A DNA stretch of 52,220 nt, from IMG/VR virus record IMGVR_UViG_3300045988_100671; one strand, 5' to 3'. A program made the position numbers and the translations under genes. Shown piece by piece: positions 16,529 through 34,783 of the stretch. Source of the DNA: a virus. Below the pieces are notes generated by a model. The model saw only the letters and a list, made by a program, of their open reading frames with translations. It made no database searches and was not told where the DNA came from. Position 1 is the first letter of the stretch, and every line of letters begins with the position of its first letter.

Positions 16529-16665
16529 CGGTAATTGAGTTTGCAGCCAAACGGCTGGAAGAAGAAAGCGGATACGACACTGACGCTGTCCGCTACTGGG
16601 CCGCCTACCTGGACGGGGCCAGGGCGCAGAAGAAAGAGGACGAGGAGGCGAAGGTCAATGATTAA
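16525..16665 (+). CDS. Small hypothetical protein (46 aa, not in ORF track)
   Basis: ATG 16525 overlaps the upstream stop and its TAA overlaps ATG 16658. Product MTVIEFAAKRLEEESGYDTDAVRYWAAYLDGARAQKKEDEEAKVND. Confidence 0.45.
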   Translation: MTVIEFAAKRLEEESGYDTDAVRYWAAYLDGARAQKKEDEEAKVND

Positions 16666-19600
16666 GATTCTGCATACCGGAGACATTCACCTCGGGGACC
16701 TGGCCGGTCCCACCAAGGACGGCCAGAACCTTCGCAGGGAAGACACCATCAGGTGTATGCGGGAGGTCTACTACCGGGCCTTCCTGGAGGAACCCGATGT
16801 GACCATCATCGCGGGAGACCTGTTCAACCGGTCCCGCGTCTGGGCGGACACCGCCCTGGAGGACGTCAACGACGCCCTGGAGCAGTTCATCATCCCGCTG
16901 TGCAAGTGCAGCGACGCCGTGGTGCTGCTGTTTGGCACCATGAACCACGACAACCCCAGGGCCTTCGAGCTCATCAAGAGAGCCACCCAGGACCTCAAGA
17001 ACCTGCATATCTACACGGAGCCGAAGGTGGAGGAGATCACCACCAGCAGCGGACCGGTCCAGATCGTAGCGGTCCCCGGCTTCGACAAGGCCCGCCTCCG
17101 CCTGTTCTGCCCCGGGGTGGACAAGGAGACGGAGAACCGGAACGCTACGGCGCTTATCAACGACATCATGCTGGGCCTGTCCACGGAGCTGGACAAGTCG
17201 AAGCCGTCCGTCCTGGTGGCTCACTACACGGTCAGCGGAAGCGAGGCGGACAACGGCTCCACCTTCCTGGCGGGCCAGGACGTCGTAGTGCTTCCGGCTA
17301 CCATCGACGCCATGGGTGTGGACCTCGCCTGCTTCGGGCACATCCACAAGCCGCAGCGGCTTGTGTGTCAGACACCGGCCTTCTATTGTGGTTCTGTCAA
17401 TCAGCTCACCTTCAACGACGAGGGGACGGAGCACGGCTTTTACATTCACACTATCGACGGGCAGGTCTCCAGCGAGTTCGCTGTGACGCCGGAGCGGAAG
17501 CACTTCACCCTGCGCCTGTCGCCGGAGGACGTCTCCGCCTTCATCACCGGCGGAGTGGCGCCGACGCCGGACGGGATCTCTGATGCCGTTGTTCGGGTCC
17601 GGTATTCCTGTACCGCCGAACAGGACAAGGCCTTCAACCGGGCAGAGCTCCAAAAGTACCTGATGCAGGCTGGAGCCTTCTACGTCGCCGAGGTTATGCC
17701 GGAGGACGTGGAGGAGCTGGACGCCAAGGACCAGCTCACGGAGCACGATGGACCGGCCGAGTGTCTGGCCCGCTGGCTGGAGACCAACGGCGTGGAGCCG
17801 GACAAGGCCGCCAGACTTGAGGAGTTGGCCGCTCCGATCATCAAGCAGGCGGACGACGGGCGCGGAGACAGCAAGCATACCGGAGCGTTTTTCCCGCGCT
17901 CCATCGAGGTCAAGAACTACCGCAGCTACACGGCAGCGACCTTCGACTTCGAGCCGGTTCACATGGCGATGGTCAACGGCCCGAACGGCGTAGGTAAGTC
18001 CAGTCTGTTCATGGACGCCCTGGCCGATTGCCTGTACGAGCAGACCCGCAAGGAGGACATCGGCGGATGGGTCCGGGACGGCACCAAGAGCGGCAGCATC
18101 ACCTTCACCTTCGGCCTGGGCGGCCAGGACTACCGGGTCATCCGCACCAGAACCAAGAGCGGGCGAGGAACCCTGGCGCTCCAGCGCTGGGACGCGGACG
18201 GCCAGGCCTGGGCCGATGAAAGCGACACCACCATGAAGCTCACCCAGGCCCGCATCGAGCGGCTTCTCGGAATGGACTGCACGACCTTCTGCTCCATCGC
18301 ACTTATCCGGCAGGACGCCTACGGGCTTTTCCTGGAAGCCGGAAGCGATCAGCGCATGGCCGTTCTGTCTGCCCTCCTGGGCCTGGACATCTACGGCCGG
18401 ATGGAGGACCTGGCGAAGGCCGGGGCCACGGAGCAGCGCCGGAAGCTGGCGGCCATCCGGGAGCGCAGCGCCATCCTCGATGAGACTATCCAGCAGAAGG
18501 CGGGCATCGAGAGCGAAGACGCCGAGCTTGCCGATCAGGTGGCCGACGTCGAGAAGTTCGTCAAGGACCTGGAGGCGGACCTCCGTGAGGCAGAGGCGGC
18601 CGAGGCCCTACGCAAGGAGATCGCCCGGCAGGCCGAGGAGAAGAAGCGGCAGGCCCAGGAGTACCGCCTCCAGGCGGCCGACAAGGCCTCCGAATACCTG
18701 GACCTGGAGAAGAAGCACTCCGAGGCAGAGGCGGCCGCTGACGGCCTGGAGGATGCAGCCAGGGCAGCGGATAAGGTCAAGGCGGCCAGGGAGATCATGC
18801 AGCAGCACGCCCCTGATGTCGAGAGGGACAAGGACCTGGTCAAGGACCGGGCCCGCGCCACAAGTGACCTGGCGACCTCTGATGAGAAGGCGCAGCACCT
18901 TGCGAGTGAAAAGGCCCGCAACGAGGCCATCCTCTCCAAGAAGGATGAAATCGTTCGTGCGAAGAACGAACTGGCGGAGATCGTCACCAAGAAGGAGACG
19001 ATTCGCCAGCGCCTCGCAGAGCTGGAGAAGGCTACCGCAGCATATCAGGAGGCAAAGGCGGCCTGTGATAGATACCTCCAGGAGGCCAAGTCGGACATCC
19101 GGGCCTGCGAGGCTGAAATCCAGCGGGCGACCGATGAAACCGCGAGACTGGATGACAGCGGGTGCCTGGTGCCGGACACCGCGACCTGCAAGTTCCTGGC
19201 CTCTGCTGTGGAATCCAAGCGAGCGCTACCCGGAATGATGGAGGAGCTTGAGACCAAGAAGGCGAAGTACCGCGAGCGCTATGATGAGCTCAAGGCGGCC
19301 GTCGATCAGGCAAAGGCCGCCATTGATGAGATCGGAGACCCCCTCGGCGCTTTGGAAGACCTGGAGTACAAGGAGCGGCGCCTCCGTTCCATCGCCTCGA
19401 AGGAGGCGGACATCGCGGTTGCGGAAGCTACCCTGGAGAAAATCGAGGCGTCCGTCCTGGAAGTGAAACAGACCTTCGATGCAGCGGCGGCCCGCATCGA
19501 CGAGATCGACGCTGAGCGCGTGAAGCTCGCCCAGGCCGTTACCGCCTACCAGGAGGCCGAGGGAGACGTGAAGGCCTTTTCCGTTTTGGCTGATACTCTG

Positions 19601-20437
19601 GCGGAGTGTCAGGCGGCCGCAGCGAAGGCCGAGGCCCTGGAGCCGCAGATCAGGAAGCTCAAGGCGGAAGTGGAGGAGCTGCGCGGCAAGTCCGAGCAGG
19701 CACTTCGAGAGGCCGACGAGATCGCCGCCCGCGTGCCGGGAGGTGGGAACGTGGCAGACCGCATCCGCGCCAACATCGAAGCGCAGCGACGGTCCCTCAC
19801 CGACCTGGCAACCCGCCGGGGACAGCTCAAGGCAAAGCTGGAGGACATCGCAGAGGCGGAGACCAAGTCCTCGGAGCTCCGCCGGGAGGCGGAAGCCGTC
19901 GGCGTGGTCTTGAGCGACTACACCACCCTGGCCCAGGCATTTGGCCTGGACGGCATCCAGTACATGATCGTGCGCGGCGTCGTGCCGGAGATCATGCGCC
20001 GGTCCAATGAAATTCTGGCAGCCATGACCGGCGGCCGTATGGCGGTGGACATCCGAACCGAGCGGGAGCAGAAGTCCACGAAGCAGATCGTGAACAGCCT
20101 GGAGGTGTGGATTAACACCATCACGGGAGGCAACAGACCCTACCTCTCCCACAGCGGAGGCGAGAAGGTCAAGATCGCGCTGGCTGTCACCCTGGGCCTG
20201 GCTGACGTGAAAGCTCGCCGGGCGGGGGTGCAGCTTGGGATGCTGTTCATCGACGAGCCCCCCTTCCTGGACGCCGACGGAACCGAGGCCTACGCCGACG
20301 CCCTGGCCGCCATGGCCTCCAGAAACCCCAATATGAGAATCCTTGCTATCTCGCACGACCCGACCATGAAGGCCCGGTTTGTGCAGAACATCGTGGTAAC
20401 CGGCGGAGAGGACGGGAGCACAGTCACGATGGAATAA
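16658..20437 (+). CDS. Fused SbcD/Mre11-like nuclease and SbcC/Rad50-like ATPase
   Basis: ATG 16658 after gaggagg. Phosphoesterase motifs ILHTGDIHLG, GDLFN, GTMNHD, GHIHKP. Walker A GPNGVGKSS. Long coiled coil. Signature LSHSGGEKV and Walker B MLFIDEP. Confidence 0.88.
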   Translation: MIKILHTGDIHLGDLAGPTKDGQNLRREDTIRCMREVYYRAFLEEPDVTIIAGDLFNRSRVWADTALEDVNDALEQFIIPLCKCSDAVVLLFGTMNHDNPRAFELIKRATQDLKNLHIYTEPKVEEITTSSGPVQIVAVPGFDKARLRLFCPGVDKETENRNATALINDIMLGLSTELDKSKPSVLVAHYTVSGSEADNGSTFLAGQDVVVLPATIDAMGVDLACFGHIHKPQRLVCQTPAFYCGSVNQLTFNDEGTEHGFYIHTIDGQVSSEFAVTPERKHFTLRLSPEDVSAFITGGVAPTPDGISDAVVRVRYSCTAEQDKAFNRAELQKYLMQAGAFYVAEVMPEDVEELDAKDQLTEHDGPAECLARWLETNGVEPDKAARLEELAAPIIKQADDGRGDSKHTGAFFPRSIEVKNYRSYTAATFDFEPVHMAMVNGPNGVGKSSLFMDALADCLYEQTRKEDIGGWVRDGTKSGSITFTFGLGGQDYRVIRTRTKSGRGTLALQRWDADGQAWADESDTTMKLTQARIERLLGMDCTTFCSIALIRQDAYGLFLEAGSDQRMAVLSALLGLDIYGRMEDLAKAGATEQRRKLAAIRERSAILDETIQQKAGIESEDAELADQVADVEKFVKDLEADLREAEAAEALRKEIARQAEEKKRQAQEYRLQAADKASEYLDLEKKHSEAEAAADGLEDAARAADKVKAAREIMQQHAPDVERDKDLVKDRARATSDLATSDEKAQHLASEKARNEAILSKKDEIVRAKNELAEIVTKKETIRQRLAELEKATAAYQEAKAACDRYLQEAKSDIRACEAEIQRATDETARLDDSGCLVPDTATCKFLASAVESKRALPGMMEELETKKAKYRERYDELKAAVDQAKAAIDEIGDPLGALEDLEYKERRLRSIASKEADIAVAEATLEKIEASVLEVKQTFDAAAARIDEIDAERVKLAQAVTAYQEAEGDVKAFSVLADTLAECQAAAAKAEALEPQIRKLKAEVEELRGKSEQALREADEIAARVPGGGNVADRIRANIEAQRRSLTDLATRRGQLKAKLEDIAEAETKSSELRREAEAVGVVLSDYTTLAQAFGLDGIQYMIVRGVVPEIMRRSNEILAAMTGGRMAVDIRTEREQKSTKQIVNSLEVWINTITGGNRPYLSHSGGEKVKIALAVTLGLADVKARRAGVQLGMLFIDEPPFLDADGTEAYADALAAMASRNPNMRILAISHDPTMKARFVQNIVVTGGEDGSTVTME

Positions 20438-22541: not shown

Positions 22542-22741
22542 GCAGATCATACCCGAGAGGATGCACGATCTTCAACTGCGACCGAAGGCGTGGGAACGTC
22601 TGCTGCGCTGACTGCGGGTACCGGGAGACGAACTGCAAAAACCCGTGCCTCAACCATCCGAGCCGCTGCGGCCAGGTCCTTCCCACCGCGAAAACGGCGG
22701 CCAACAAGAAGCTACCCCAGGGGAAACGCCCCAATAAATAA
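22538..22741 (+). CDS. Small cysteine-rich protein
   Basis: 67 aa with 9 Cys (CDRRRGNVCCADCGYRETNCKNPC). Start overlaps the upstream stop. Confidence 0.55.
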   Translation: MSRSYPRGCTIFNCDRRRGNVCCADCGYRETNCKNPCLNHPSRCGQVLPTAKTAANKKLPQGKRPNK

Positions 22742-22757
22742 ACAGGAGGAAACCAAT

Positions 22758-23639
22758 ATGGAAGTCAAACTGAACGCGCTGCGCCGTGGCGACACCTTCG
22801 CCCTGGCCGGTATCAACTGGAAGGTGCTCAAGGAGCTTGAGCCCGCCCACTCTGGAGCCGCGCAGAACTATTTCTGCGAGGCTGCGGAAGACATCTTCCA
22901 GGCACCCTTCGACGAGAACGGCAACAACAACTGGAATAACGCCAGCCTGCGGGAGCGGCTGAACGGTGACTTCCTGGACGCCCTGGAGAAGGAACACCCC
23001 GGCATCCTGGAGTTCATCGTCCCCACCTACCGCGATCTGACCGCCGATGATGGCCTCAACGACTACGGGGCTTGCCTCGATAAGGTGACCATGCTGACGG
23101 CGGATGAATACCGGGAGACCAGGGACCTTCACCCCGCGCCGGAACACTGGCGCTGGCTCATTACCCCCGATGGTACGCCCGCCAGCTCCGGCACCTCTTT
23201 CGTGCGCTACGTGTACTCGGACGGGAGCCTCGACAGCGACTACGCGTACGACGGCCGCAGGGGCGTGCGCCCGGCTTTGACCCTGAAATCTGACATCTTG
23301 GTATCTGTCGATGACCAGGAAGACCAGACGGAGGAGCCGGAGGAGATGACCCCGGAGCAGCGCGAGATGGCGCTCTATGAGAAGGCTGTCGCCAAGTGGG
23401 GCAAGAGAGCCCAGGCCCTCAAGGCCATCGAGGAGATGAGCGAGCTGTCCCAGGCCATCTTGAAGCTGGTGTTCTGCGAGGACTACGGTATCGGGGATGA
23501 ACAGGCCATCCGCGACAACATCTCCATGGAGCGGGCCGACGTTGAGATCATGCTCAACCAGCTCCACGTCATCTTCGGGGACAACAGCGAGATGGAGTGC
23601 AAGAGACTGGACAACCTGGAAAGCCTTCTGGAGGGATAA
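22758..23639 (+). CDS. DGR target protein 2: lectin-like variable domain (VR2) fused to a MazG-like all-alpha NTP pyrophosphohydrolase domain
   Basis: ATG 22758 after aggagga. Contains VR2 (aa about 147-174 of 293). C-terminal EEMSE-28 aa-ERAD fits the MazG EXXE...EXXD metal-binding pattern. Confidence 0.8.
   Translation: MEVKLNALRRGDTFALAGINWKVLKELEPAHSGAAQNYFCEAAEDIFQAPFDENGNNNWNNASLRERLNGDFLDALEKEHPGILEFIVPTYRDLTADDGLNDYGACLDKVTMLTADEYRETRDLHPAPEHWRWLITPDGTPASSGTSFVRYVYSDGSLDSDYAYDGRRGVRPALTLKSDILVSVDDQEDQTEEPEEMTPEQREMALYEKAVAKWGKRAQALKAIEEMSELSQAILKLVFCEDYGIGDEQAIRDNISMERADVEIMLNQLHVIFGDNSEMECKRLDNLESLLEG
23201..23277 (+). repeat. DGR variable repeat 2 (VR2)
   Basis: 77 bp align to TR 1356-1432 with 8 mismatches, all at TR adenines. 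Counting two further A-to-T positions at 23199-23200 gives 79 bp and 10 mismatches. Same IMH-like 3' end as VR1. Confidence 0.92.
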
Positions 23640-23643
23640 GCCT

Positions 23644-23799
23644 ATGTTAATTTCCGCGCAGATCATCACCATCCTGTTCACCTTCTGCGGATTCTGCTAC
23701 ACGTTCGGAGGTAAGACGCAGATGGACCGCAGCAACGGGTCCAGGGTCACGGCGGCCGGTTTGATTGCCCTGGCGATCTTGGCCGCCTGGGGAGCATGA
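23644..23799 (+). CDS. Small two-TM membrane protein (51 aa)
   Basis: ggaggg 7 nt upstream of ATG 23644. Product MLISAQIITILFTFCGFCYTFGG...AAGLIALAILAAWGA. Confidence 0.5.
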   Translation: MLISAQIITILFTFCGFCYTFGGKTQMDRSNGSRVTAAGLIALAILAAWGA

Positions 23800-24005
23800 G
23801 CGCCAAGGAGGAGGTCTTCACCATCCCTGCCCGCCGGTGCAAACGGTGTGGAGGATTGCTCACGAGCTCCCAGGGGCTCCGGGACGGGTACGGCCCCTGC
23901 TGCCTCCGAAAGATGAGGCAGGAGGAGGCCGACCGGAAGATGATGGAGAACCAATGCAGTCTGTTCGACATAGTTCCGAAAGCGGAACAAAGGGAGGAAA
24001 ACTGA
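23796..24005 (+). CDS. Small zinc-finger protein (DUF6011-like)
   Basis: CKRCGG...GYGPCC motif. Confidence 0.55.
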   Translation: MSAKEEVFTIPARRCKRCGGLLTSSQGLRDGYGPCCLRKMRQEEADRKMMENQCSLFDIVPKAEQREEN

Positions 24006-24007
24006 CC

Positions 24008-24826
24008 ATGAACCTGCACAAAAGCAAAATCGAATGGTGTACCCACACCTGGAACCCGGTGACCGGCTGCCTGCATGGCTGCCCCTACTGTTACGCCCGG
24101 CGATTTATCGACCGGTTCAAGCCGCAGCCCTGTGAGCGGCCGGAGCCGGAGCCTATGGAGTATCTTCCCAAGGGGTCCGGCATCTACGTCAGTAACTCAC
24201 CGTGCAACGCGGTGGACGACGTCCAGAATTATGCGAGGACCACGCCGTACCCGAAGGGATTCGCGCCCACCTTCCACACCTACACACTGGACTATCCGGC
24301 CAAGCGGGCTATCCCGTCCCGGGTGTTCGTCTCCAGCATGGGCGATCTGTTCGGGGAGTGGGTGCCGGACATCTGGATTCAGGGTGTCTTCGATGCCTGC
24401 GACAAGGCACCGCAGCACACCTACCTGTTTCTCACCAAGAACCCACAGCGGTATTGCGATCTGGCGAACGCCGGGAAGCTGCCGAAGCGGGATAACTTCT
24501 GGTACGGGACCAGCGTGACCGGGAAGGGCGCTCCCCTCTTTGCGACCAGCGTGGACTTCAATACCTTCTTGAGCATTGAACCGCTCATGGAGAACCTGGA
24601 GGCCGGTCTCGGGAGCTTCGGAGGCGTCCGCTGGGTCATCGTAGGGGCTATGACCGGGCCCGGAAGCAAGAAGCACCAGCCGAAGCGGGAGTGGGTAGAG
24701 AACATCGTGGAGGCCGCTGGCCTGACCCATGCCGCCGTCTTTATGAAGGACAGCCTGGCGCCGATCTGGGGCGACGATCTCATCAGAGACCACCCGGACG
24801 GCATGGTGTGGCCGGAGGTCAAGTAA
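24008..24826 (+). CDS. Gp37/Gp68-family protein (DUF5131)
   Basis: ATG 24008 after agggagg. IEWCTHTWNPVTGC..GCPYCYA N-terminus is typical of the family. Confidence 0.75.
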   Translation: MNLHKSKIEWCTHTWNPVTGCLHGCPYCYARRFIDRFKPQPCERPEPEPMEYLPKGSGIYVSNSPCNAVDDVQNYARTTPYPKGFAPTFHTYTLDYPAKRAIPSRVFVSSMGDLFGEWVPDIWIQGVFDACDKAPQHTYLFLTKNPQRYCDLANAGKLPKRDNFWYGTSVTGKGAPLFATSVDFNTFLSIEPLMENLEAGLGSFGGVRWVIVGAMTGPGSKKHQPKREWVENIVEAAGLTHAAVFMKDSLAPIWGDDLIRDHPDGMVWPEVK

Positions 24827-25342: not shown

Positions 25343-25625
25343 CGCTGCGGAGCTGGAGCGGTACCAGAAGGACGAAGCGGCGGGCCTGCTGCTTCGGCTT
25401 CCGGCTCCGATCGGGTCAACGGTCTGGAGAGTTCGCCAGAACCCGTCCTGCCATTACGGGGTGCGGGAAGCGGAAAAGTTCTTGTTCGGCCGGGTGGTAA
25501 CACCTCGCCGCATCGTTGAGCCGGTACCGTTCACCCTGCTCCTGCTGGATGAATGGGGCCGGACGGTCTTCCTCACCAAGCATGAGGCGGACAAAATGCT
25601 GGGGAAGGAGGAAGATACAGAATGA
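25326..25625 (+). CDS. Hypothetical protein
   Basis: 99 aa, overlapping neighbours in operon fashion. Confidence 0.55.
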   Translation: MWSGDDAAELERYQKDEAAGLLLRLPAPIGSTVWRVRQNPSCHYGVREAEKFLFGRVVTPRRIVEPVPFTLLLLDEWGRTVFLTKHEADKMLGKEEDTE

Positions 25626-26155
25626 CACCGAAGGAACAACTGGCCGCCGCCAGAAGGTTTGCCGGTAAGAAGTCGAAGGCCCAGGGAGACTACTTCGAGG
25701 CCCTGATCGAGGCCGGATGCAACTTCTATCGGGACCGGAAGGTGGCGGACATCGAGAAGACGCCGGAGCCTATGCGGCCGATCAAGGACCTTGGGGGCGG
25801 AAAGTTCATCGCCCACTATACCAAGGCGGCCCAGGCGGACTTCAAAGGCTTCCTGTTTGGGGGCCAGACCGTCATGTTCGAGGCGAAGCACACGGACACC
25901 GGACGGATGGAGCAGGACCGGGTGACACCGGATCAGGCCGAGCGCCTGGAGCGGGCCGTTGAGTATGGAGCGCTGGCGTTCGTGCTCTGCTCGTTTGGAT
26001 ATGCGGGATTCTACCGGATTCCGTGGACCGTATGGCGGGACATGAAGGGCATTTTTGGACACAAGTACATCACGCCGGAGGAGGCAGCGAGGTTCGAGGT
26101 CCGCATCGGCGGGCCCGGGGTGCTGCTATTCCTTGGCGAAGCGGACACGAAGTGA
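25622..26155 (+). CDS. recU: RecU-like Holliday junction resolvase
   Basis: GDYFEALIEAGCNFY...IEKTPEPMRPIK...DFKGFLFGGQTVMFEAKHT...Q...L resembles the RecU family. Confidence 0.7.
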   Translation: MTPKEQLAAARRFAGKKSKAQGDYFEALIEAGCNFYRDRKVADIEKTPEPMRPIKDLGGGKFIAHYTKAAQADFKGFLFGGQTVMFEAKHTDTGRMEQDRVTPDQAERLERAVEYGALAFVLCSFGYAGFYRIPWTVWRDMKGIFGHKYITPEEAARFEVRIGGPGVLLFLGEADTK

Positions 26156-27928: not shown

Positions 27929-28015
27929 CCGAAGGTAACAAAAAAGAGCCGCCTCCCCCGAAGGGGTGACAGCCCGTGACTATTGCTATCATACCACGGA
28001 GGAGGCGACTTTTCA

Positions 28016-28522
28016 ATGGGAAATCGAAAGGAACTTGAGGACATTATCAAACTGGCGGTAGAGGCTGGCCGTATCTCTGCGGAGCGGTCTGCCAAAGACG
28101 CCTACAAGGCCACGGAGCGCCGCCTCTATGCGCTCCCCATCCTTCGACGCAAACTGGCCGATGACAAGGAGCGTCTGGAGGAGATCAGACAGTACGGCCC
28201 CAGAGAGCGGAGCAAGAGCATTACCCGCTTCACGAAGTCTGGCGTGCGCCTGTCGCCCGAGGAAATCTTTGAGGCGGTTATCATGGACATGGAGGCCACC
28301 ATCGCGGCCGATCAGTATGAGATCGACGCCATGGACAAGGCCCTGTCCGTCATCCGGGACGACGAATACTATCTGACCGTGACCGGGAGATACCTGGATG
28401 ACCTCCCCGATGAGCGCGTCGCAGAGCTCATTCCTTGCGATACGAGCACCGTTTGGAGGAACCGGAAGCGCCTGGTGCAGCGCCTTGCGGTGTGGCTCTA
28501 CGGGGCCGACGCCACGAAGTAG
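28016..28522 (+). CDS. RinA / sigma-70-region-4-like transcriptional activator (putative late regulator)
   Basis: ATG 28016 after ggaggagg. ERRLYALPILRRKLADDKERLEEI and the C-terminal HTH VAELIPCDTSTVWRNRKRLVQRLA resemble RinA/ArpU-type regulators. Confidence 0.6.
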   Translation: MGNRKELEDIIKLAVEAGRISAERSAKDAYKATERRLYALPILRRKLADDKERLEEIRQYGPRERSKSITRFTKSGVRLSPEEIFEAVIMDMEATIAADQYEIDAMDKALSVIRDDEYYLTVTGRYLDDLPDERVAELIPCDTSTVWRNRKRLVQRLAVWLYGADATK

Positions 28523-28697: not shown

Positions 28698-28726
28698 GTG
28701 ACAAGGATTCCGAAAAGTGGTATAAT
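28698..28726 (+). promoter_or_regulatory. Strong sigma-A promoter with extended -10
   Basis: gtgaca (28698-28703), 17-nt spacer ending in tgg, TATAAT (28721-28726). Confidence 0.65.
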
Positions 28727-28761: not shown

Positions 28762-29247
28762 ATGAAAAAGATTTGTCTTTTAGACCTCAACTACACCCTG
28801 GTAGGGAACCAGGCGGAGACCCGGATGCTCCGGCCCTTCTCCCGCCGCATGGAGGCGGAGGAGTACCGCCGCGATCTGATCGACGCCATAAAGGATGACT
28901 ATGTCATCATCATCACGGCCCGGCCGGACTACCAGATGCGGCAGACCATGGAGAACATCCGCCGGAAGACCGGCTGGCAGCCGCAGGAGTGGTACTTCAA
29001 CGACATCAATGCGGAGCCCCCGGTCTTCAAGGAGAGCGCCCTTCGCCGCTTCATCTTCCCGAAGCACGGCCTCCAGATGGGGCCGGAGGGGACCTTCTAC
29101 TACGCCGTGGAGAGCAACCCGAAGACCAGGACGATGTATAGCCGGTTCGGAATCAAGGGCCAGCCCTACGACGTCTTTATGCGTAGCGTGAGACCGGAGG
29201 CGGCCGTGGCGCCGCAGCCTACCTACTGCCAGGTCAGCCTATTCTAA
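28762..29247 (+). CDS. HAD-fold-like hydrolase (tentative)
   Basis: RBS aaaggag. N-terminal ICLLDLNYTL resembles HAD motif I with Asn in place of the second Asp, and IIITARP resembles motif II. Weak assignment. Confidence 0.4.
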   Translation: MKKICLLDLNYTLVGNQAETRMLRPFSRRMEAEEYRRDLIDAIKDDYVIIITARPDYQMRQTMENIRRKTGWQPQEWYFNDINAEPPVFKESALRRFIFPKHGLQMGPEGTFYYAVESNPKTRTMYSRFGIKGQPYDVFMRSVRPEAAVAPQPTYCQVSLF

Positions 29248-29318: not shown

Positions 29319-29927
29319 TTGAGAACCCAGACCATCAAACTGGCCGACATCAAACCGGCCGAATACAACCCACGGGTGACCCTGACCGAGAAGGACCAGG
29401 AGTACAAGGCCCTGGCGGCCAGCATCGAGGACAACGGCCTGGTCCTTCCTCTGGTGGTGAACCTGCGGGACGGCGTCCTCATCAGCGGGCACCAGCGGCT
29501 CAACGTGCTGCTCGCATCTGGTGAGACGGAGACCGAGGCCGTCGTGGTGGACATGGACCCGGCCCAGGCCAAAGCCCTTTGCATCGCCATGAACAAGCTG
29601 GACGGCGAATGGGACAACGGCAGCCTTGCGGATCTCCTCCAGGAGCTCCAGGACGAAAGCGCTGACCTCCTGGGCACCGGCTTCACCCGCCAGGAGATCG
29701 ACGAGCTGCTGGGAGACCTCGGGGGCGCTGGAGACGATGATGACCCGCCCACCACGGACAAGAAGAAGGACGACAAGGAGGGCATCAAGTGCATCGTCGG
29801 CGACTACACCTTCCGTCTGACCGAAGATGAGTTCGCAGACCTCATGGTTGACGTGCGTGAAGCGGTGGGCTTTACGCAGGAGCTCATCTGTGCGGAGCTG
29901 AAAAGGAGGCTTTTCGATGCAGTATAA
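29319..29927 (+). CDS. ParB-like nuclease-domain protein 1
   Basis: TTG start after aaaggagag. IKPAEYNPR ... ISGHQRLNVL is a ParB/Srx N-terminal domain signature. Acidic tail. Confidence 0.75.
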   Translation: MRTQTIKLADIKPAEYNPRVTLTEKDQEYKALAASIEDNGLVLPLVVNLRDGVLISGHQRLNVLLASGETETEAVVVDMDPAQAKALCIAMNKLDGEWDNGSLADLLQELQDESADLLGTGFTRQEIDELLGDLGGAGDDDDPPTTDKKKDDKEGIKCIVGDYTFRLTEDEFADLMVDVREAVGFTQELICAELKRRLFDAV

Positions 29928-30594
29928 GACCACCTTCAAGACCATACCCCTGGCCGACATCGTCGAGTGCCCCTACAATCCCCGTGTGGCGATCGAGCGG
30001 GACACGCCGGAGTATGACGCCCTGCGCCGCAGCCTGGAGCAGCATGAGGTGGTGGAGCCCCTGGTGGTGAACATCCACAACATGAGGTGCGTGGGAGGAA
30101 ATCAGCGTCTCGCGGTTATGCGGGACATGGGCATTACCGAGGCCCTGTGCTCCATCATCGACCAGCCCGATGAGGTCCAGGAGAAGAAGCTCTGTCTGGC
30201 CCTGAACCGGATAGACGGCCGGTGGGACACCGACAAGCTGGGCGATCTGCTGCGGGACGACGACGTCCTGGAGTGGGAGACCGGCTTCGACGAGGCGGAA
30301 GTCCGCCTGTACCGGCAGCTTGAGGACGCCCAGGAGCCGGATGCCGACGACGACGCCGAAGACCTGGACGACCTGGAGGATGAAGACCAGGAGGAAACCG
30401 AGGGGGATGACGAGGAGGAAGACGCGCCCGAGGAGGGCACGATCAACACCACCGTCATCCGCATCGGCCACTATTCCTTCAAGGTCGAGTATTCCGCCTA
30501 CAAGCGCCTGGTGGACACCATCATGGACGACGGCATCTTCTCCGGGCCGGACATCGAGGCGGAGATCAAGAGGAGGCTGCTGGAAAATGATTGA
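29917..30594 (+). CDS. ParB-like nuclease-domain protein 2
   Basis: IVECPYNPR ... VGGNQRLAVM. Long D/E-rich linker. Confidence 0.75.
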   Translation: MQYKTTFKTIPLADIVECPYNPRVAIERDTPEYDALRRSLEQHEVVEPLVVNIHNMRCVGGNQRLAVMRDMGITEALCSIIDQPDEVQEKKLCLALNRIDGRWDTDKLGDLLRDDDVLEWETGFDEAEVRLYRQLEDAQEPDADDDAEDLDDLEDEDQEETEGDDEEEDAPEEGTINTTVIRIGHYSFKVEYSAYKRLVDTIMDDGIFSGPDIEAEIKRRLLEND

Positions 30595-32134
30595 GCTGGT
30601 ACCCATTGAATCCGTTCACGCATCGGAGTATAACCCCCGGCGGAACGATGAAAAGCGCCTGGCCTTGACGGAGCTGTCCCTCCGAAAGCTGGGCTTCCTG
30701 CTGCCGATCTACGCGGACCGCAGCGGGGAAATCTTGAGCGGACACCAGAGGCACCTTGTTGCCTCCCGCATGGGCTTCACCCAGATTCCGGTCGAGTATG
30801 TCAGCGGGAAGGACCTGGGAGAGCGGAAGGCTGTGAACGTCTTGTTCAACCGGGCGACCAACGACCTCCAGAAGCAAGACACCTGCGACATCATCCGGCG
30901 CCGTCTCTATGAGATGGACGTGGAAAGCATGGTGGACGGCCTGCCGGACATCACGCCGGACACCGTCGAATCCTTCCCGTGCGTCTTCTGCCTGCACCGG
31001 CGGGACACCGTTCAGCTCGCCAAGGCCAACCACCGGAGCTTTGACACCCACACCCGGCAGCTCGCCAAGAGCCTGGAGCGCCGCATCGGGACGGCAATGC
31101 CCATCGTGATTGGCGCAAGCGAGAACGTCATCAACGGCATCGGCCGCCTCCAGGTGGCAGCGGAGGCCAAGCGGCCCGTGGTCCGGTGTGTGGTCGTCAC
31201 CAAGGAGCAGGAGGCCTTTGCAACGGCCATGCTGAACCTACTGTCCATGGACTTTGACATCGCCTCCTATGCGGACGACCTTCGGTACAACTCGTTCATG
31301 CGGGAGCGGAACACCAGAGAGACCGACGCCGAAGGAAACGCAGCCCTGGGAGACGGCTTCTTCAAGGGCGTGTTCCCGAAGAACCGTGGCCGGGACTTCT
31401 GCAAGCTGGAGGGCGCGGCCCTGGAGGCGTGGCGCCGTCACTATGGCTCCAGCGTCGTGGACTTCGGAGCAGGAAAGCTGAACAACACCCGCACACTGCG
31501 GAAGGCTGGAATCCATGTGGCTGCCTTCGAGCCGTACTTCGTGACCGTGGGCGAGAATATCCACAAGGCCAAGAGCGTGGAGATCGCAGAGAAGTTCCTT
31601 GACGATGTGGAGGCCGGGACGCCCTTCACGTCCGTCTTCATCTCCAGCGTGTTCAACAGCGTTCCGTTTATGGCAGATCGGAAGCAGATCGCGGTGATCG
31701 CCGCCGCCCTGTGTTCGCCCGGAGGCCGGACGGTCTGCTGGTGCCAGAGCAATAAGGCCCCGCAGTTCGTGAACACCAAGAAGAAGTTCCTGGCGGCCGA
31801 GAAGACTTTAACCTTCGACCTGGACTACGAGCCCAACACCATCCTGGGAGACATCGGGAACCACCCGAAGGCCCAGAAGGGGCACACCGAGGAGGAGATG
31901 CGGGAAATCTTCGCCCCGTGCTTCCGCAAGGTTGACCGGCTGGAAATGATTCAAAAATTCTGGTACATGGAGGTGTCGGAGCCCATCGTGGACCCGGAGG
32001 CCCTGGGCGCTGCCCTGGACTTCGAGTTCGAGCTTCCATACCCGGACGGAACCCGAATGGGGCTGTCCGAGCGGGCCCGCAAGGCCTTTGAGCATCGCCT
32101 CGGCGTCTCCATCCCGAGAAAGGAGAGCACATGA
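30587..32134 (+). CDS. ParB-like domain fused to a class I SAM-dependent methyltransferase-fold domain
   Basis: ATG 30587. N-terminal VHASEYNPR...LSGHQRHLVA. C-terminal VVDFGAGKL (motif I), VAAFEPY and FISSVFNSV. No DPPY/N6-N4 motif seen. Confidence 0.75.
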   Translation: MIELVPIESVHASEYNPRRNDEKRLALTELSLRKLGFLLPIYADRSGEILSGHQRHLVASRMGFTQIPVEYVSGKDLGERKAVNVLFNRATNDLQKQDTCDIIRRRLYEMDVESMVDGLPDITPDTVESFPCVFCLHRRDTVQLAKANHRSFDTHTRQLAKSLERRIGTAMPIVIGASENVINGIGRLQVAAEAKRPVVRCVVVTKEQEAFATAMLNLLSMDFDIASYADDLRYNSFMRERNTRETDAEGNAALGDGFFKGVFPKNRGRDFCKLEGAALEAWRRHYGSSVVDFGAGKLNNTRTLRKAGIHVAAFEPYFVTVGENIHKAKSVEIAEKFLDDVEAGTPFTSVFISSVFNSVPFMADRKQIAVIAAALCSPGGRTVCWCQSNKAPQFVNTKKKFLAAEKTLTFDLDYEPNTILGDIGNHPKAQKGHTEEEMREIFAPCFRKVDRLEMIQKFWYMEVSEPIVDPEALGAALDFEFELPYPDGTRMGLSERARKAFEHRLGVSIPRKEST

Positions 32135-32826
32135 GAGACAACACAAATCCTACCGGGGCATGGGAGTTCAACGGCGAGGTTGCTGCCTGCTTCGCAAATA
32201 TGCTGGAGCGCAGCATCCCGGACTACCGATCTATGAGAGCCCTGGTCTATAACGCCGGAGAGCGGTTCGTGAAGCCCGACACCCTCATCGTTGATGTCGG
32301 GTGCTCCACCGGCCTGGCTGTGGAGCCGTTCGTCACCAAGCATCGGGACGAGAATGACTTCCTGCTGATCGACAACGCACCGGCCATGGCGCAGGCCTGC
32401 CGGGAGCGCTTCTGCTCCGAACCTGCTGTTACGGTGAAGGAGGGAAATCTCTGGGAGTTCCTTCCGCTTGAGGACCGGGCGAGCCTGGTTCTTTCTGTAC
32501 TGTCCATGCAGTTCATGCCGACGGCATACCGGCGCTTTATGCTGCGCCAGATCTGCGAGAGCATCGTCGATGGCGGCGCTCTGATCTATGTTGAGAAGGT
32601 TGTGGCCGGGAGCCTGGACGATCTGATGGTGGACCTCTACTACCAGATGAAGCGGGAGAACGGGTACACCAACGAGCAGATCATGGCGAAGCGCCGGAGC
32701 CTTGAGAACGTCCTCTCCCCTCTGGAGCCCGAGTGGAATGAAGCCATGCTCAAGGAGGCGGGCTTCCGGCGGGTACAAATGTTCTGGCGCTGCCTCAATT
32801 TCTGCGGGTGGATTGCCGTGAAATAA
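32131..32826 (+). CDS. cmoA: CmoA-like carboxy-S-adenosyl-L-methionine synthase homologue
   Basis: Matches the E. coli CmoA sequence as I recall it along its full length. Blocks: WEFNGEVAACFANMLERSIPDYRS, VDVGCSTG, IDNAPAMAQACR, GGALIYVEK, KRENGYTNEQIMAKRRSLENV, LKEAGFRRVQMFWRCLNFCGWIAVK. Confidence 0.85.
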   Translation: MRDNTNPTGAWEFNGEVAACFANMLERSIPDYRSMRALVYNAGERFVKPDTLIVDVGCSTGLAVEPFVTKHRDENDFLLIDNAPAMAQACRERFCSEPAVTVKEGNLWEFLPLEDRASLVLSVLSMQFMPTAYRRFMLRQICESIVDGGALIYVEKVVAGSLDDLMVDLYYQMKRENGYTNEQIMAKRRSLENVLSPLEPEWNEAMLKEAGFRRVQMFWRCLNFCGWIAVK

Positions 32827-32850: not shown

Positions 32851-33366
32851 ATGCCGAAACGCAGCGAAACGAAGCCGTGGGAGCGCCAGGACAAGGAGGG
32901 CGAGAAGCCTTTTGAGGCCTTCGTCATCTACCGGGATATGGGCGAGAAGCGCACACTTCAAGCCGTTGCGGACAAGTTGCGGAAAAGTTACACTCTCATA
33001 CGCCGTTGGAAGGACACCTGGGCGTGGGAAGATCGCGTCCGGGCCTACGACAATAACTTGCAGAAGGAGGCCCATGCGGAGGCGGTCAAGAAGGCCCGCA
33101 AGATGGCGGACCGGCATATCGGCATAGCTCTGAAATTGCAGGCCAAGGCCATGGAGGCCCTGGAGAAGATGGACGCGGAGGACATCGACCCGAAGAACCT
33201 GGTCGCCTTCATCAGGGAGGCCACCAAGCTGGAGCGGGAGAACCGCCAGGACATTGTCCAGATGACCGACCCGGACCGTGGAGAGGAAGGCGGTTCCACG
33301 AGCCTTGCTGATGTCATTTCCGAGGCCTGGGAGAGGAGGCGGAAGCAGAATGAAAATGACAGCTGA
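32851..33366 (+). CDS. terS: Terminase small subunit
   Basis: RBS aggagagga. N-terminal HTH-like FEAFVIYRDMGEKRTLQAVADKL. Directly upstream of the large terminase. Confidence 0.75.
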   Translation: MPKRSETKPWERQDKEGEKPFEAFVIYRDMGEKRTLQAVADKLRKSYTLIRRWKDTWAWEDRVRAYDNNLQKEAHAEAVKKARKMADRHIGIALKLQAKAMEALEKMDAEDIDPKNLVAFIREATKLERENRQDIVQMTDPDRGEEGGSTSLADVISEAWERRRKQNENDS

Positions 33367-34783
33367 CGCCATCCTTTACTACGCCGACAATCCGGTGGAC
33401 TTTGTGGAGGACGTCATCAGAGCCAAGCCGGATGCCAACCAGAGGGACATCCTGAACAGCGTGGCCCGGTACCCCATGACGTCCGTGAGAAGTGGACACG
33501 GTATAGGCAAGAGCGCGGTGGAGAGCTGGCTTGCGATCTGGTTCCTGACCACCCGGCCGTACCCGAAAATTCCCTGCACAGCTCCTACGCAGCACCAGCT
33601 ATGGGACATCCTGTGGGCCGAGATTGCGAAGTGGTTGAGAAACAACCCGGCCCTGGCGAATGACCTGATCTGGACAAAAGAGAAGGTCTACATGAAAGGA
33701 CACCCGGAGGAATGGTTTGCCGTAGGACGAACGGCCAGCAAGCCGGACGCCCTCCAGGGCTTCCATGCAGACCACGTCCTCTACATCATCGACGAGGCCT
33801 CCGGCGTCAAAGATGAGATATTTGAGCCTATCCTCGGCGCGCTGTCCACCGAGGGCTCCAAGCTGGTGATGTGCGGGAACCCCACCAAGATCACCGGCTT
33901 TTTCTATGACAGCCACCACAAGAACCGCGAGCAGTTCAACGCCATGCACATAGACGGGCGAAGCTCCAGCCGAGTTGACCAGGACTTCGTTGACACCATC
34001 ATTGATATGTTCGGTGAGGACAGCGACGTCTTCCGCGTCCGTGTGGCTGGGGAGTTCCCGAGGGCCCTGCCTGACAGCTTCATACCGATGGAGTGGGCAG
34101 AGCGGGCCAGCGAGGCGAAGGCCCCGGAGATTGAGCAGGTGACCCGCGTGGACATCGGAATCGACGTTGCGCGGTACGGAGACGATAGCTCCGTGATCTC
34201 CCCCGTTCTGGACCGTAGGGTCCAGGAGGAGCCGGAAGTCTACCACCACAACGACACCATGCAGCTCACCGGCATGGCTGTTATATGCGTCAAGAAGTAC
34301 GCCAGAGCTCACCCCTGGGCAGAAATCCATGTGAAGATCGACTGCGACGGCCTGGGCGTCGGCGTGTTCGACCGTCTCATGGAGCTCAAGGAGCAGATCG
34401 TTGAGGAGATCGAGCGGGAGCGCGAAGGCCTCTACGAAGACGACGACGCGCCGCCTGCGATGTCCCTGGACATCGTCGAGTGCCACTTCGGCGGAGAAGG
34501 CGGTACTGTGAATGACGCCGACCCGGTGGAGTACCAGACAAGCACCGGCCTGATGTGGGGCACGGTGAGAGAGGCCCTGAGGACCCAGAGCTTAAAGCTG
34601 TGGCCTGATGACAAGCAGATTTCGCAGCTCTCCAACCGGCGGTACGTCGTGAACAGCGCTGGCAAGATCGAGCTGGAGAAGAAAGAGGCCATGAAAAAGC
34701 GCGGTCTCTCCTCTCCAGATATGGGAGACGCCCTGGCCCTGGCCCTCTACGACCCGCTGGTGAGCGACTGGAGCATCAACTAA
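33350..34783 (+). CDS. terL: Terminase large subunit
   Basis: Walker A-like VRSGHGIGKS and Walker B LYIIDEASGV. Nuclease half with IGIDVARYGDDSSV. Confidence 0.9.
   Translation: MKMTADAILYYADNPVDFVEDVIRAKPDANQRDILNSVARYPMTSVRSGHGIGKSAVESWLAIWFLTTRPYPKIPCTAPTQHQLWDILWAEIAKWLRNNPALANDLIWTKEKVYMKGHPEEWFAVGRTASKPDALQGFHADHVLYIIDEASGVKDEIFEPILGALSTEGSKLVMCGNPTKITGFFYDSHHKNREQFNAMHIDGRSSSRVDQDFVDTIIDMFGEDSDVFRVRVAGEFPRALPDSFIPMEWAERASEAKAPEIEQVTRVDIGIDVARYGDDSSVISPVLDRRVQEEPEVYHHNDTMQLTGMAVICVKKYARAHPWAEIHVKIDCDGLGVGVFDRLMELKEQIVEEIEREREGLYEDDDAPPAMSLDIVECHFGGEGGTVNDADPVEYQTSTGLMWGTVREALRTQSLKLWPDDKQISQLSNRRYVVNSAGKIELEKKEAMKKRGLSSPDMGDALALALYDPLVSDWSIN

Follow-up and report, generated by a model that had tools for sequence, protein, structure and literature searches.

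Why does a temperate phage carry a synthase for carboxy-S-adenosylmethionine (Cx-SAM) beside a ParB-domain methyltransferase, just before its terminase genes? The question arises from a prophage-like genome, IMG/VR record IMGVR_UViG_3300045988_100671, of which the whole stretch of 52,220 nucleotides analyzed here is called the window. A sequence-only reading had described a CmoA homologue coupled to a ParB::methyltransferase fusion and proposed that the pair carboxymethylates phage DNA or an RNA. According to our analysis, the CmoA and the ParB-ParB-methyltransferase fusion probably form a second, undescribed type of phage carboxymethylation beside the CmoA-CmoX type. The sequences suggest that the fusion may be a Cx-SAM-dependent transferase of a new class, carboxymethylating the phage DNA late in infection, a reading to which we assign a probability of about 0.5.

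Both open reading frames were present on the + strand exactly where they had been placed, the fusion at 30587-32134 (515 aa) and the CmoA-like gene directly behind it (231 aa). By sequence, the latter encodes a full-length CmoA homologue. The CmoA model TIGR00740 aligned residues 7-231 with model positions 11-239 (E 1.9e-45, 155.4 bits), the second-best family in the profile search scoring only 27 bits. PRK15451 (E 2.9e-36) and phrog_4752 (E 8e-78) matched as well. The TIGR00740 score does not reach the equivalog cut-off of 193.3 and exceeds the scores of the CmoA of Erwinia phage Y3 (142 bits) and the validated phage enzyme SpCmoA (115.6 bits). The closest solved structures were all CmoA proteins, namely E. 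coli CmoA 4GEK (E 3.9e-36), 4IWN (3.7e-34) and H. influenzae YecO 1IM8 (1e-30), with the first non-CmoA structure, an unrelated methyltransferase, following at E 4.7e-13. The conserved blocks from which CmoA had originally been recognized were seen in the alignment with these relatives, and the assignment holds along the whole length. The position of E. coli Arg199, which we take from the 2013 structures to contact the Cx-SAM carboxylate, is an Arg in the window CmoA (KRRSLENV versus KRSMLENV); SpCmoA and several CmoAs from related modules have a Lys or Arg one position later. In view of this strong homology the protein would convert SAM and prephenate to Cx-SAM.

Table 1. Features of the module and its surroundings in the window
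Feature	Position	Strand	Basis
Putative transcriptional activator (context)	27983..28522	+	phrog_36 'transcriptional regulator' E 1e-11; phrog_248 'transcriptional activator'
Sigma-70-like promoter candidate for module and packaging operon	28698..28726	+	GTGACA-17-TATAAT, extended TG, 11/12 positions; consensus match only
HAD-like protein, 160 aa	28762..29247	+	phrog_32036 E 1e-88
Small ParB-like protein 1 (ParB/Srx N-domain, acidic linker, short C-terminal domain)	29319..29927	+	phrog_620 E 1.5e-46
Small ParB-like protein 2 (paralogue)	29917..30594	+	phrog_620 E 6.5e-35
Fusion, ParB/Srx domain 1 (aa 1-115; NPR and SGHQR motifs)	30587..30931	+	ParB PHROGs, Noc/ParB structures
Fusion, ParB/Srx domain 2 (aa 120-225; NGIGR motif)	30944..31261	+	hhalign to domain 1
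Fusion, divergent class I (Rossmann) methyltransferase domain with beta-rich C-terminal extension; candidate Cx-SAM-dependent transferase	31262..32134	+	
CmoA homologue (carboxy-S-adenosylmethionine synthase)	32131..32826	+	TIGR00740, PDB 4GEK, phrog_4752 matches
Terminase genes (context; conserved downstream neighbours): small subunit, large subunit	32851-33366, 33278-34783	+	Phage_terminase small-subunit match

The gene junctions are tight. The TGA stop codon of the fusion overlaps the cmoA start in the sequence ATGA at 32131-34, preceded by the ribosome-binding site AAAGGAGAG, and the stop of the second small ParB gene overlaps the fusion start by 8 nt. Downstream the terminase genes come next, as the sequence-only reading had noted, and a portal gene lies 3' of these. 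A putative activator gene lies upstream of the module, just before a promoter-like site, and no + strand terminator-like site was found from this promoter candidate to position 35000. Three ParB-domain proteins are encoded consecutively. The small ParB genes and the HAD-like gene, which belong to the same conserved module, had been overlooked. Small ParB-like protein 1 also matched ParB_N (E 3e-5) and Noc TIGR04285 (E 3e-9). The HAD-like protein has the invariant motifs LLDL(N/H)xT, TARP, K and ESN, in which the second Asp of DxDx(T/V) is Asn or His. Its Pfam matches were weak and sub-threshold (NIF 0.013, HAD 0.014, HAD_PNKP 0.027), no PDB sequence matched, and its orthologue in Gordonia phage Evaa carries the annotation 'phosphatase'.

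The fusion matched phrog_5475, a phage family of unknown function, over almost its entire length (residues 1-506 to positions 2-457 of 458, E 3.7e-179); the same family was matched by gp052 of Pseudomonas phage SM1 and gp2 of Gordonia phage Evaa. At the N-terminus ParB_N was weak in Pfam and strong in phage ParB PHROGs (E 1e-23 to 6e-24), including phrog_498 over aa 2-92 (E 5.7e-24), and by sequence Noc and ParB were the best solved-structure matches. Alignment of aa 1-115 with aa 120-225 by hhalign gave a probability of 97.3% (E 1.9e-11), indicating two tandem ParB/Srx domains, of which the second had escaped notice. Across the family N16, P17, R18, S51, G52 and R55 are invariant in domain 1, and G184 and R187 in domain 2. 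A Methyltransf_23-like segment spans aa 284-381, which together with the N-terminal ParB matches agrees with the ParB::class I methyltransferase architecture proposed earlier.

The VVDFGAGKL and VAAFEPY sequences on which that proposal relied are both present in the methyltransferase domain, and motif I (D292-x-G294-x-G296) and the acidic, ribose-binding E315 are conserved across the family. With these sequence features the domain looks active. The absence of a DPPY-type motif was also correct: a motif scan of the fusion detected neither [DNS]PP[YFW] nor PC[QH], and a Pfam scan gave no PF01555 match. The SVPF sequence at 358 belongs to the generic segment after beta4 ('vlhhvp') that characterizes Methyltransf_11/25-type enzymes. 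The suggested comparison with CmoB and DNA methyltransferases produced no homology. Aligning the family profile with E. coli CmoB by hhalign gave a probability of 1.3% over just 26 columns around motif I, CmoB structures were missing from the top 50 Foldseek matches, and homology to CmoX or any DNA methyltransferase was not detectable. AlphaFold2 models of the domain (pLDDT 86-88) retrieved only generic class I methyltransferases (E ~5e-6, TM-score 0.32-0.58 among the matches listed). The closest folds, with low TM-scores, were small-molecule, peptide and tRNA methyltransferases (CypM, GSMT, CcbJ, TylM1, Trm9, METTL6). The dissimilarity to CmoB, CmoX and DNA methyltransferases counts against DNA carboxymethylation.

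These folds bring up the possibility that Cx-SAM is used with an acceptor other than DNA. The acceptor might then be RNA, for example the tRNA or rRNA of the host, or a protein, for which a ParB partner, the terminase and a capsid component come into question; a third candidate is a nucleotide, either free or bound. With a nucleotide acceptor, the ParB/Srx domains would be nucleotide-binding modules and the HAD-like protein a phosphatase acting on the product or a precursor. ParB/Srx N-domains are indeed nucleotide-binding folds (PMC13229309), the putative phosphatase is almost obligate in the module, and of the known Cx-SAM users, CmoB modifies tRNA, TglF a peptide and MccB a peptidyl-nucleotide (PMC10491745). 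However, the window contains no tRNA genes, and the ORFs scanned in this temperate phage included no nucleotide kinase or DNA polymerase that could channel a modified dNTP. To our knowledge, Firmicutes hosts lack a ho5U-to-cmo5U pathway partner. Association with ParB is shared by CmoX and 5mYOX, which are both DNA enzymes (PMC12783734, PMC13229309), and phages that bring their own CmoA into CmoA-positive hosts suggest a stoichiometric, bulk substrate. Examples of such phages are Pseudomonas SM1 and Aeromonas HJ05, and their CmoA fits a bulk Cx-SAM demand because the cellular level of Cx-SAM is ~0.5 uM as compared to ~200 uM SAM (PMC4482062). We consider a non-DNA acceptor unlikely, though with an appreciable chance of being correct. 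A simple scheme of DNA carboxymethylation does not account for the HAD-like protein, which could point to a phosphorylated substrate (nucleotide or protein).

To establish how firmly the fusion and CmoA belong together we surveyed their co-occurrence, as had been suggested. A CmoA-like gene was located at most 1.3 kb downstream of the fusion on the same strand in 83/84 viral and cultured-phage loci, the one exception being truncated, and beside the fusion in 69/80 prophage loci of bacterial genomes. In seven of the 11 other prophage loci the sequence breaks off no more than ~1.5 kb behind the fusion, in one case with a cut start of CmoA still present; another locus has a CmoA remnant, and 3 are without any CmoA. 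The linkage is kept from 100% down to 33% fusion identity, and pairwise identities of fusion and CmoA are correlated (r = 0.874; 0/999 permutations reached that value). Linked phages belong to hosts from Firmicutes, Bacteroidota, Proteobacteria, Verrucomicrobiota, Cyanobacteria, Chloroflexi and Actinobacteria and include the cultured phages Pseudomonas SM1/PaMx31, Gordonia Evaa and Aeromonas HJ05; the hosts closest to the window phage are Flavonifractor and Oscillospiraceae. We know of no cmo5U pathway in Gram-positive hosts such as these. The HAD-like gene was found in 75/83 and 76/80 fusion loci, in most lineages directly between fusion and CmoA, and the small ParB family in 81/83 loci, often in two copies. 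That fusion and CmoA are translationally coupled, stay together in nearly all loci across phyla and diverge in a correlated manner supports their functional coupling, in agreement with the sequence-only reading.

This linkage bears on whether the fusion could be an ordinary SAM-dependent methyltransferase, with CmoA acting independently as a SAM drain or as a source of Cx-SAM as an anti-defence metabolite, and co-regulation as the reason for their proximity. The SAM-binding motifs of the fusion are generic, and its family-invariant residues R233, N357, D364/R365 and K428 are candidates for gripping the S-carboxymethyl group. An effect of CmoA-mediated SAM depletion on host defences was raised as a possibility in the Discussion of Yang et al. 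(PMC12783734). The 3 prophage loci without CmoA, which retain the fusion and the HAD-like gene with no CmoA within 6 kb, are also compatible with independent roles and speak against Cx-SAM-dependent DNA carboxymethylation. Near-obligate adjacency, translational coupling and co-divergence across very distant phages nevertheless argue against such independence, as does the pairing of CmoA-type genes in other phages, always with a dedicated transferase such as CmoX (PMC12783734). Furthermore, the methyltransferase domain is essentially confined to this architecture and context: at E<=1e-3 it was found in 314 clusters, almost exclusively in ~500-aa proteins in which it starts near residue 220. An ordinary methyltransferase is thus distinctly improbable.

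The position of the module could also mean that it is mainly a packaging accessory, in which the ParB-like nuclease domain proteins help the terminase in recognizing or cutting the packaging site. Modification by the methyltransferase and CmoA would then be limited to a local site or to a packaging protein and not extend over the whole genome. TerL homologues were found downstream of the module in 70 loci, and terminases of other families follow it in SM1, HJ05, L056, L064, L071 and L077. The place directly upstream of the terminases is invariant across these unrelated families (window-type, Terminase_6, Terminase_3 and lambda GpA), and the row of three ParB-domain proteins would suit a packaging function. 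However, phage DNA methyltransferases are also usually encoded just before the terminase, as are the first genes of the late operon, no nuclease catalytic residues are visible in the sequence, and a dedicated cofactor synthase would be costly for a single-site mark. We regard this explanation as having a very slim chance.

For DNA carboxymethylation, a scheme can be proposed in which the module stands at the head of a late, packaging operon and comprises the HAD-like protein, one or two small ParB-like proteins, the ParB-ParB-class I methyltransferase fusion and CmoA. The ParB-fused enzyme would transfer the carboxymethyl group from Cx-SAM made by CmoA. It is the candidate consumer because it is the only other methyltransferase-fold protein found in the phage; Pfam detected no further methyltransferases in ~48 larger ORFs of the window. 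The likeliest target would be a base in the phage's own dsDNA, modified after replication, around the time of packaging, and the modification may serve in anti-restriction or anti-defence and be distinct from the 5-carboxymethylcytosine made by CmoX. The ParB/Srx domains within the fusion, together with the small ParB paralogues, might tether or activate the enzyme on dsDNA, for which the ParB activators of phage thymine dioxygenases are a precedent. By analogy with phage ParB-DNA methyltransferase fusions (phrog_498), ParBc proteins found with CmoX (PMC12783734) and the ParB-activated thymine dioxygenase (PMC13229309), a role at the DNA level is plausible. A ParB domain is in itself no proof of DNA binding, since 5mYOX-associated ParBs have no DNA-binding domain (PMC13229309). 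The more specific version, in which the fusion founds a class of Cx-SAM-dependent DNA carboxymethyltransferases unrelated to C5 methyltransferases, modifies a base to a product other than 5cxmC genome-wide, and uses ParB/Srx as a tether or clamp-like activator, is put forward tentatively and at less than even odds. If correct, the phage DNA would contain a previously unknown carboxymethylated base, e.g. an N- or O-carboxymethyl purine or pyrimidine, introduced by an enzyme expressed together with the packaging machinery, and the system would be common among temperate phages that infect gut Firmicutes and hosts of many other phyla.

The earlier statement that phage carboxymethylation lacks a natural precedent is outdated. 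In Synechococcus phage S-B43, CmoA-CmoX-CmoY produces 5cxmC and 5gcxmC, its glycine amide (Yang et al., Nat Commun 2025; PMC12783734). Phage DNA carboxymethylation with phage-made Cx-SAM is therefore an established idea, and only the transferase family would be new here; Yang et al. found no further carboxymethyltransferase class associated with CmoA (PMC12783734). Both systems have a phage CmoA beside a methyltransferase-fold gene and ParB-domain proteins nearby, as ParBc proteins occur in CmoX contigs (PMC12783734), and the presumed logic of making Cx-SAM and then transferring its carboxymethyl group is the same. Identity of the window CmoA is 30% with SpCmoA and 45% with its counterpart in Erwinia phage Y3, whose cmoA gene is adjacent to one for an asparagine synthase and close to one for a DNA methyltransferase. 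CmoX, which with phage CmoA gives 5-carboxymethylcytosine, is a C5-methyltransferase homologue (PMC12783734), whereas the partner in the window is a ParB-ParB-class I methyltransferase unrelated to these enzymes and accompanied by a HAD-like protein. The window module has no C5-methyltransferase homologue, SPPC motif or equivalent of CmoX R350, which grips the S-carboxymethyl group as K91, Y200 and R315 do in CmoB. Searching with SpCmoX by tblastn gave no match at E<=0.01 in the window and 83 other loci, nor at E<=1e-4 in the 80 genome loci, PF00145 had no Pfam match in the scanned window ORFs, and SpCmoY, an asparagine-synthetase-like amide ligase, had no match in the window or ~160 related loci.

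The bacterial CmoA/CmoB pathway to tRNA cmo5U34 resembles the module in the full-length likeness of CmoA and in gene overlap, cmoA with cmoB in E. coli and the fusion with cmoA here. In contrast to CmoB, the window partner carries ParB domains, is not a CmoB homologue and is encoded in a phage late operon, with Gram-positive Oscillospiraceae as closest hosts. Phage N6/N4 DNA methyltransferases fused to ParB (phrog_498; CDD ParB_N_like_MT) share a related ParB/Srx N-domain and the pre-terminase place, but the catalytic domain of the fusion is not PF01555- or D12-like and has no (D/N/S)PP(Y/F), and the fusion has a second ParB domain and a near-obligate CmoA partner. The 5mYOX thymine dioxygenases need ParB to act on dsDNA (O'Toole et al., PNAS 2026; PMC13229309). 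In contigs that 5mYOX profiles picked up, ParBs (27%) and terminases (19%) ranked among the commonest accompanying domains, and the figure of that survey also has a HAD annotation (PMC13229309). Both systems have small phage ParBs without an obvious HTH beside a known or putative DNA base-modifying enzyme; the window enzyme differs in having a methyltransferase fold instead of that of an Fe/2OG dioxygenase, in its covalently fused ParB domains and in being known from sequence alone. Finally, CmoA homologues have been recruited together with dedicated carboxymethyl transferases for non-tRNA substrates in TglE/TglF (3-thiaglutamate) and MccS/MccB (microcin C) (PMC10491745), but there the transferase is either CmoB-like or a part of MccB, and the pathways belong to bacterial biosynthetic clusters rather than to phage modules.

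Both ORFs described in the sequence-only reading are real and their positions exact, and the product of the second is a full-length CmoA homologue with CmoA as its top family, as had been proposed. The protein (231 aa, window CmoA) matched NCBIfam TIGR00740 over residues 7-231 with E 1.9e-45 and 155.4 bits, under the NCBI equivalog cut-off of 193.3, as well as PRK15451 (E 2.9e-36) and PHROG family phrog_4752 (E 8e-78); the runner-up family reached just 27 bits. The best solved structures were E. coli CmoA 4GEK (E 3.9e-36), 4IWN and H. influenzae YecO 1IM8, and the first non-CmoA methyltransferase appeared at E 4.7e-13. Sequence identity was 33% to E. coli CmoA, 30% to SpCmoA of Synechococcus phage S-B43 and ~45% to CmoAs of Erwinia jumbo phages. 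In the alignment window CmoA has Arg at the position of E. coli Arg199, which we take to be a ligand of the carboxylate of carboxy-S-adenosylmethionine (Cx-SAM). The equivalog cut-off is uninformative for phage proteins because SpCmoA, for which Cx-SAM synthesis was demonstrated biochemically (PMC12783734), reaches just 115.6 bits; the CmoA of Erwinia phage Y3 scored 142 bits. By homology, window CmoA is predicted to make Cx-SAM. All module-linked CmoA-like proteins tested also had CmoA as top family by a wide margin.

The preceding gene encodes a 515-aa protein (the fusion) that matched phrog_5475, a family without assigned function, over its whole length (E 3.7e-179). The protein begins with a ParB/Srx domain, for which matches were obtained to Noc/ParB structures and, with E 1e-23 to 6e-24, to ParB PHROGs. 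A further, degenerate copy of this domain occupies residues 120-225, as profile-profile comparison showed (hhalign probability 97.3%, E 1.9e-11). Confident AlphaFold2 models (pLDDT 88 for the entire fusion, 86 for the C-terminal part) gave a class I methyltransferase fold for residues ~226-515. SAM motif I reads D292-x-G294-x-G296; it is conserved across the family, as is an acidic residue closing β2 (E315), which indicates an intact cofactor site. The absence of a DPPY-type motif, noted earlier, was borne out, since (D/N/S)PP(Y/F/W) does not occur in the fusion; a PC(Q/H) motif was looked for and is absent too. The 'NSVPF/SVPF' stretch after β4 was considered as motif IV of an amino-methyltransferase with N6-A or N4-C chemistry. 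This was rejected because TSVFISSVFNSVPFMADRK...GG fits the Methyltransf_11/25-type pattern 'fDlvvssnvlhhvpd...GG' and not hhhh(D/N/S)PP(Y/F). The comparison with CmoB that the sequence-only reading had proposed gave a hhalign probability of 1.3%, so the domain is not CmoB-like and was rejected as a CmoB homologue.

Sequence and profile searches of the PDB with the fusion recovered the ParB part alone, the catalytic domain having no detectable solved relative. Foldseek, run with the full model and the isolated C-terminal domain, returned generic class I methyltransferases only, acting on small molecules, peptides or tRNA (E ~5e-6), with TM-scores of 0.32-0.58 among the matches listed. As modelled, the fold offers no clue to the substrate.

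The genome in the window is that of a temperate phage, with an integrase and a CI-like repressor as well as genes for replication/recombination, terminase, portal, protease, capsid, tail and baseplate. No tRNA genes were found in the window, and Pfam scans of ~48 of its larger ORFs gave methyltransferase matches in the fusion and CmoA only. The fusion and cmoA are translationally coupled: the TGA of the fusion overlaps the ATG of cmoA as ATGA, with a good ribosome binding site ahead. The upstream ParB-like gene 2 overlaps the fusion start by 8 nt. Because a strong promoter-like site precedes the module (HAD-like gene, small ParB genes, fusion and cmoA) and the scan gave no terminator-like site on the + strand through this stretch, the module appears to open the late, packaging operon.

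Features in and around the module of the window
Feature	Coordinates	Remark
Activator-like gene	27983-28522	first in order around the module
Promoter-like site	28698-28726	strong; consensus scan
HAD-like gene	28762-29247	~160 aa (160-161); phrog_32036
ParB-like gene 1	29319-29927	
ParB-like gene 2	29917-30594	
Fusion	30587-32134 (+)	after ParB-like gene 2
cmoA	32131-32826 (+)	after the fusion; then terS, terL and the portal gene

Elsewhere the window carries a diversity-generating retroelement. Its 107-nt template repeat (1326-1432) is closely followed by a reverse transcriptase gene (1461-2750; RVT_1, E 5e-15), and a variable repeat (3300-3406), 92% identical to the template, lies inside ORF 2506-4353, which encodes a DUF6273/Ig-like protein. 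Template adenines account for all mismatch positions in the repeat core. Since this ORF adjoins genes for a CBM_5_12 protein and a lysis amidase, a tail or receptor-binding role is suggested for its product. A second DUF6273 protein is encoded at 22590-23639. The 1300-aa ORF at 16535-20437, in the replication/recombination region, is an SbcC-SbcD-like fusion of a calcineurin-like phosphoesterase domain and an SMC/RecF-type ATPase; a DUF5131 protein (23765-24826, E 1e-38) is encoded near a RecU-like resolvase (25622-26155).

The co-occurrence of cmoA-like genes with ParB-methyltransferase fusions, which the sequence-only reading had put forward for survey, is near-obligate. A CmoA-like gene on the same strand within 1.3 kb downstream was present in 83 of 84 viral and cultured-phage fusion loci, a set that includes Gordonia phage Evaa, Pseudomonas phage SM1 and Aeromonas phage HJ05 (fusion identity 33-40%); the sequence of the sole exception stops 29 nt past the fusion. 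Among prophage loci in bacterial genomes 69 of 80 had the gene. Seven of the other 11 have at most ~1.5 kb left downstream of the fusion, one of these holding a cut CmoA start, one has a 116-aa CmoA remnant, and three have no CmoA within 6 kb. Pairwise identities of fusion and CmoA across loci correlated with r = 0.874, a value reached in 0 of 999 permutations, and the two proteins thus co-diverge with their synteny preserved.

The three loci with the fusion and the HAD-like gene and no CmoA (L116, L117 and L127) come from Pseudomonadota and Puniceicoccales MAGs and one MAG labelled merely 'bacterium'. Their sequence past the HAD-like gene looks unlike phage packaging genes, with an ORF in L117 that is PIN-like by eye, and they may be prophage remnants or users of host CmoA. 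Chimeric ORFs of metagenomic origin were seen as well (P0002 and the ParB::CmoA or fusion::CmoA proteins P0098, P0120, P0181, P0185, P0194 and P0204), which combine an N-terminal fusion or small-ParB part with a C-terminal CmoA part, or ParB2 with the fusion. Probably they arose by deletion, frameshift or misassembly inside the module; the CmoA chimeras were rejected as Rosetta-stone evidence because each occurs in 1-3 contigs and the parts are joined at non-equivalent positions.

By neighbourhood clustering, small ParB proteins number 138 copies, spread over 81 of 83 loci. The two in the window have an unusual layout in common, in which a ParB/Srx N-domain is followed by a strongly acidic linker (runs of D/E) and then by ~50 conserved C-terminal residues ending ...E(L/I)KRRL(F/L); no HTH domain was detected in either. 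The phrog_32036 protein, linked to the fusion almost as tightly as CmoA, occurred in 75/83 loci by the same clustering and in 76/80 genome loci. In most lineages its gene is inserted directly between those for the fusion and CmoA, and stop and start codons overlap at the junctions; in locus L003 it is found at 2633-3115 (-). Its invariant blocks are LLDL(N/H)xT, TARP, K and ESN, the second Asp of HAD motif I being replaced by Asn or His. Pfam matches to NIF, HAD and PNKP-phosphatase families were weak and sub-threshold, a sequence search of the PDB gave no match, and the Evaa orthologue is annotated 'phosphatase'; the HAD-like assignment is tentative.

In all lineages inspected, the gene that directly follows the module is that for the large terminase, and a TerL homologue was found within 5 kb downstream in 70 of 164 loci (tblastn, five TerL queries). 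The position is kept although the terminases belong to unrelated families, namely the window type, Terminase_6 (L001), phrog_9 (SM1, HJ05), Terminase_3 (L056) and the lambda GpA type (L064, L071, L077). It brings up a role mainly as a packaging accessory, which we regard as most unlikely.

The fusion family is large, with matches to 741 clusters at 90% identity among scored candidates, 248 IMG/VR stretches and 198 stretches in GTDB species genomes. When the methyltransferase domain was the sole query, an exhaustive search gave 314 clusters at 50% identity (E<=1e-3), nearly all ~500-aa proteins in which the domain starts near residue 220, so the architecture is fixed. Prophages of Oscillospiraceae and Lachnospiraceae from the human gut commonly carry the module, which also occurs in phages of Proteobacteria, Verrucomicrobiota, Cyanobacteria and Actinobacteria, including the cultured Pseudomonas phages SM1/PaMx31, other Samunavirus phages, Gordonia phage Evaa and Aeromonas phage HJ05. 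The nearest prophages (84% identity) are those of Flavonifractor and Pseudoflavonifractor, which fits the G+C content of the window (~60%); a DNA-level search of annotated phages found no close relative of the window.

We give a probability of about 0.5 to the reading that the module carboxymethylates phage DNA using Cx-SAM. The fusion would consume the Cx-SAM made by CmoA, the acceptor would be phage DNA modified after replication, around packaging, and the ParB/Srx modules would hold or activate the enzyme on DNA. Pseudomonas and Aeromonas hosts have CmoA, and their phages with the module still bring their own copy; since cellular Cx-SAM is ~0.5 µM versus ~200 µM SAM (PMC4482062), this suggests a bulk requirement for Cx-SAM. 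Against the use of Cx-SAM count the three loci without CmoA and the fact that no Cx-SAM-specific residue was demonstrated in the fusion, which might then be an ordinary SAM methyltransferase with CmoA acting independently; beside the co-divergence of the two proteins we consider this improbable. Against DNA as the target count the fold neighbours of the fusion, which are not DNA enzymes, and the HAD-like partner, which hints at a phosphorylated substrate. Transfer from Cx-SAM to another acceptor is rather unlikely, being somewhat more plausible than use of plain SAM.

If carboxymethylation of phage DNA holds, the module would represent a second class of Cx-SAM DNA-modification transferase and imply an unknown carboxymethyl modification of DNA (or other), with a new job in base modification for ParB/Srx domains, and DNA labelling would gain a new enzyme that provides a carboxylate 'handle'. 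In practical terms the module bears on how gut phage DNA is sequenced and analysed by restriction, and it is directly testable because cultured phages carry it. A literature search on DNA modification in Samunavirus/PaMx31/SM1 found nothing relevant.

The sequence-only interpretation stood in its CmoA homology, architecture and coupling, while its belief that no natural phage system had been established is outdated. Yang et al. (Nat Commun 2025, PMC12783734) described the CmoA-CmoX-CmoY system of phage S-B43, in which Cx-SAM comes from phage CmoA and is used by CmoX. CmoX is homologous to C5-cytosine methyltransferases, has Arg350 and an SPPC motif, and forms 5-carboxymethylcytosine, which CmoY amidates with glycine (PMC12783734). 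Natural Cx-SAM DNA modification was shown only in late 2025 and only via homologues of C5-cytosine methyltransferases (PMC12783734). Searches with SpCmoX and SpCmoY by tblastn gave nothing in the window or ~160 related loci, and the module was rejected as a CmoX system. It differs in this from the cluster of Erwinia phage vB_EamM_Y3 (12641-19450 of NC_047880.1), where CmoA adjoins an asparagine synthase close to 2OG-Fe(II) oxygenase and DNA methyltransferase genes and which looks like a CmoA-CmoX-CmoY type with an extra oxygenase.

ParBc proteins without known role occur in many CmoX contigs (PMC12783734). O'Toole et al. (PNAS 2026, PMC13229309) described small phage ParB-like proteins that activate a thymine dioxygenase, and do so specifically on dsDNA. 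The small ParBs of the window resemble these activators, which consist of a nucleotide-binding domain and a C-terminal domain without HTH (PMC13229309). In contigs retrieved with 5mYOX profiles, the domains that co-occur most often include ParBs and terminases, and the survey figure has HAD as one of its domain annotations (PMC13229309). Yang et al. reported no further transferase class alongside phage CmoA, their preliminary search having given no N6-A or N4-C carboxymethyltransferase candidates associated with CmoA (PMC12783734), and the fusion may be this 'other' class of carboxymethyltransferase. Whereas CmoX is a C5-cytosine methyltransferase homologue, the module is probably a phage Cx-SAM system whose transferase comes from a different, uncharacterised family and has additional partners.
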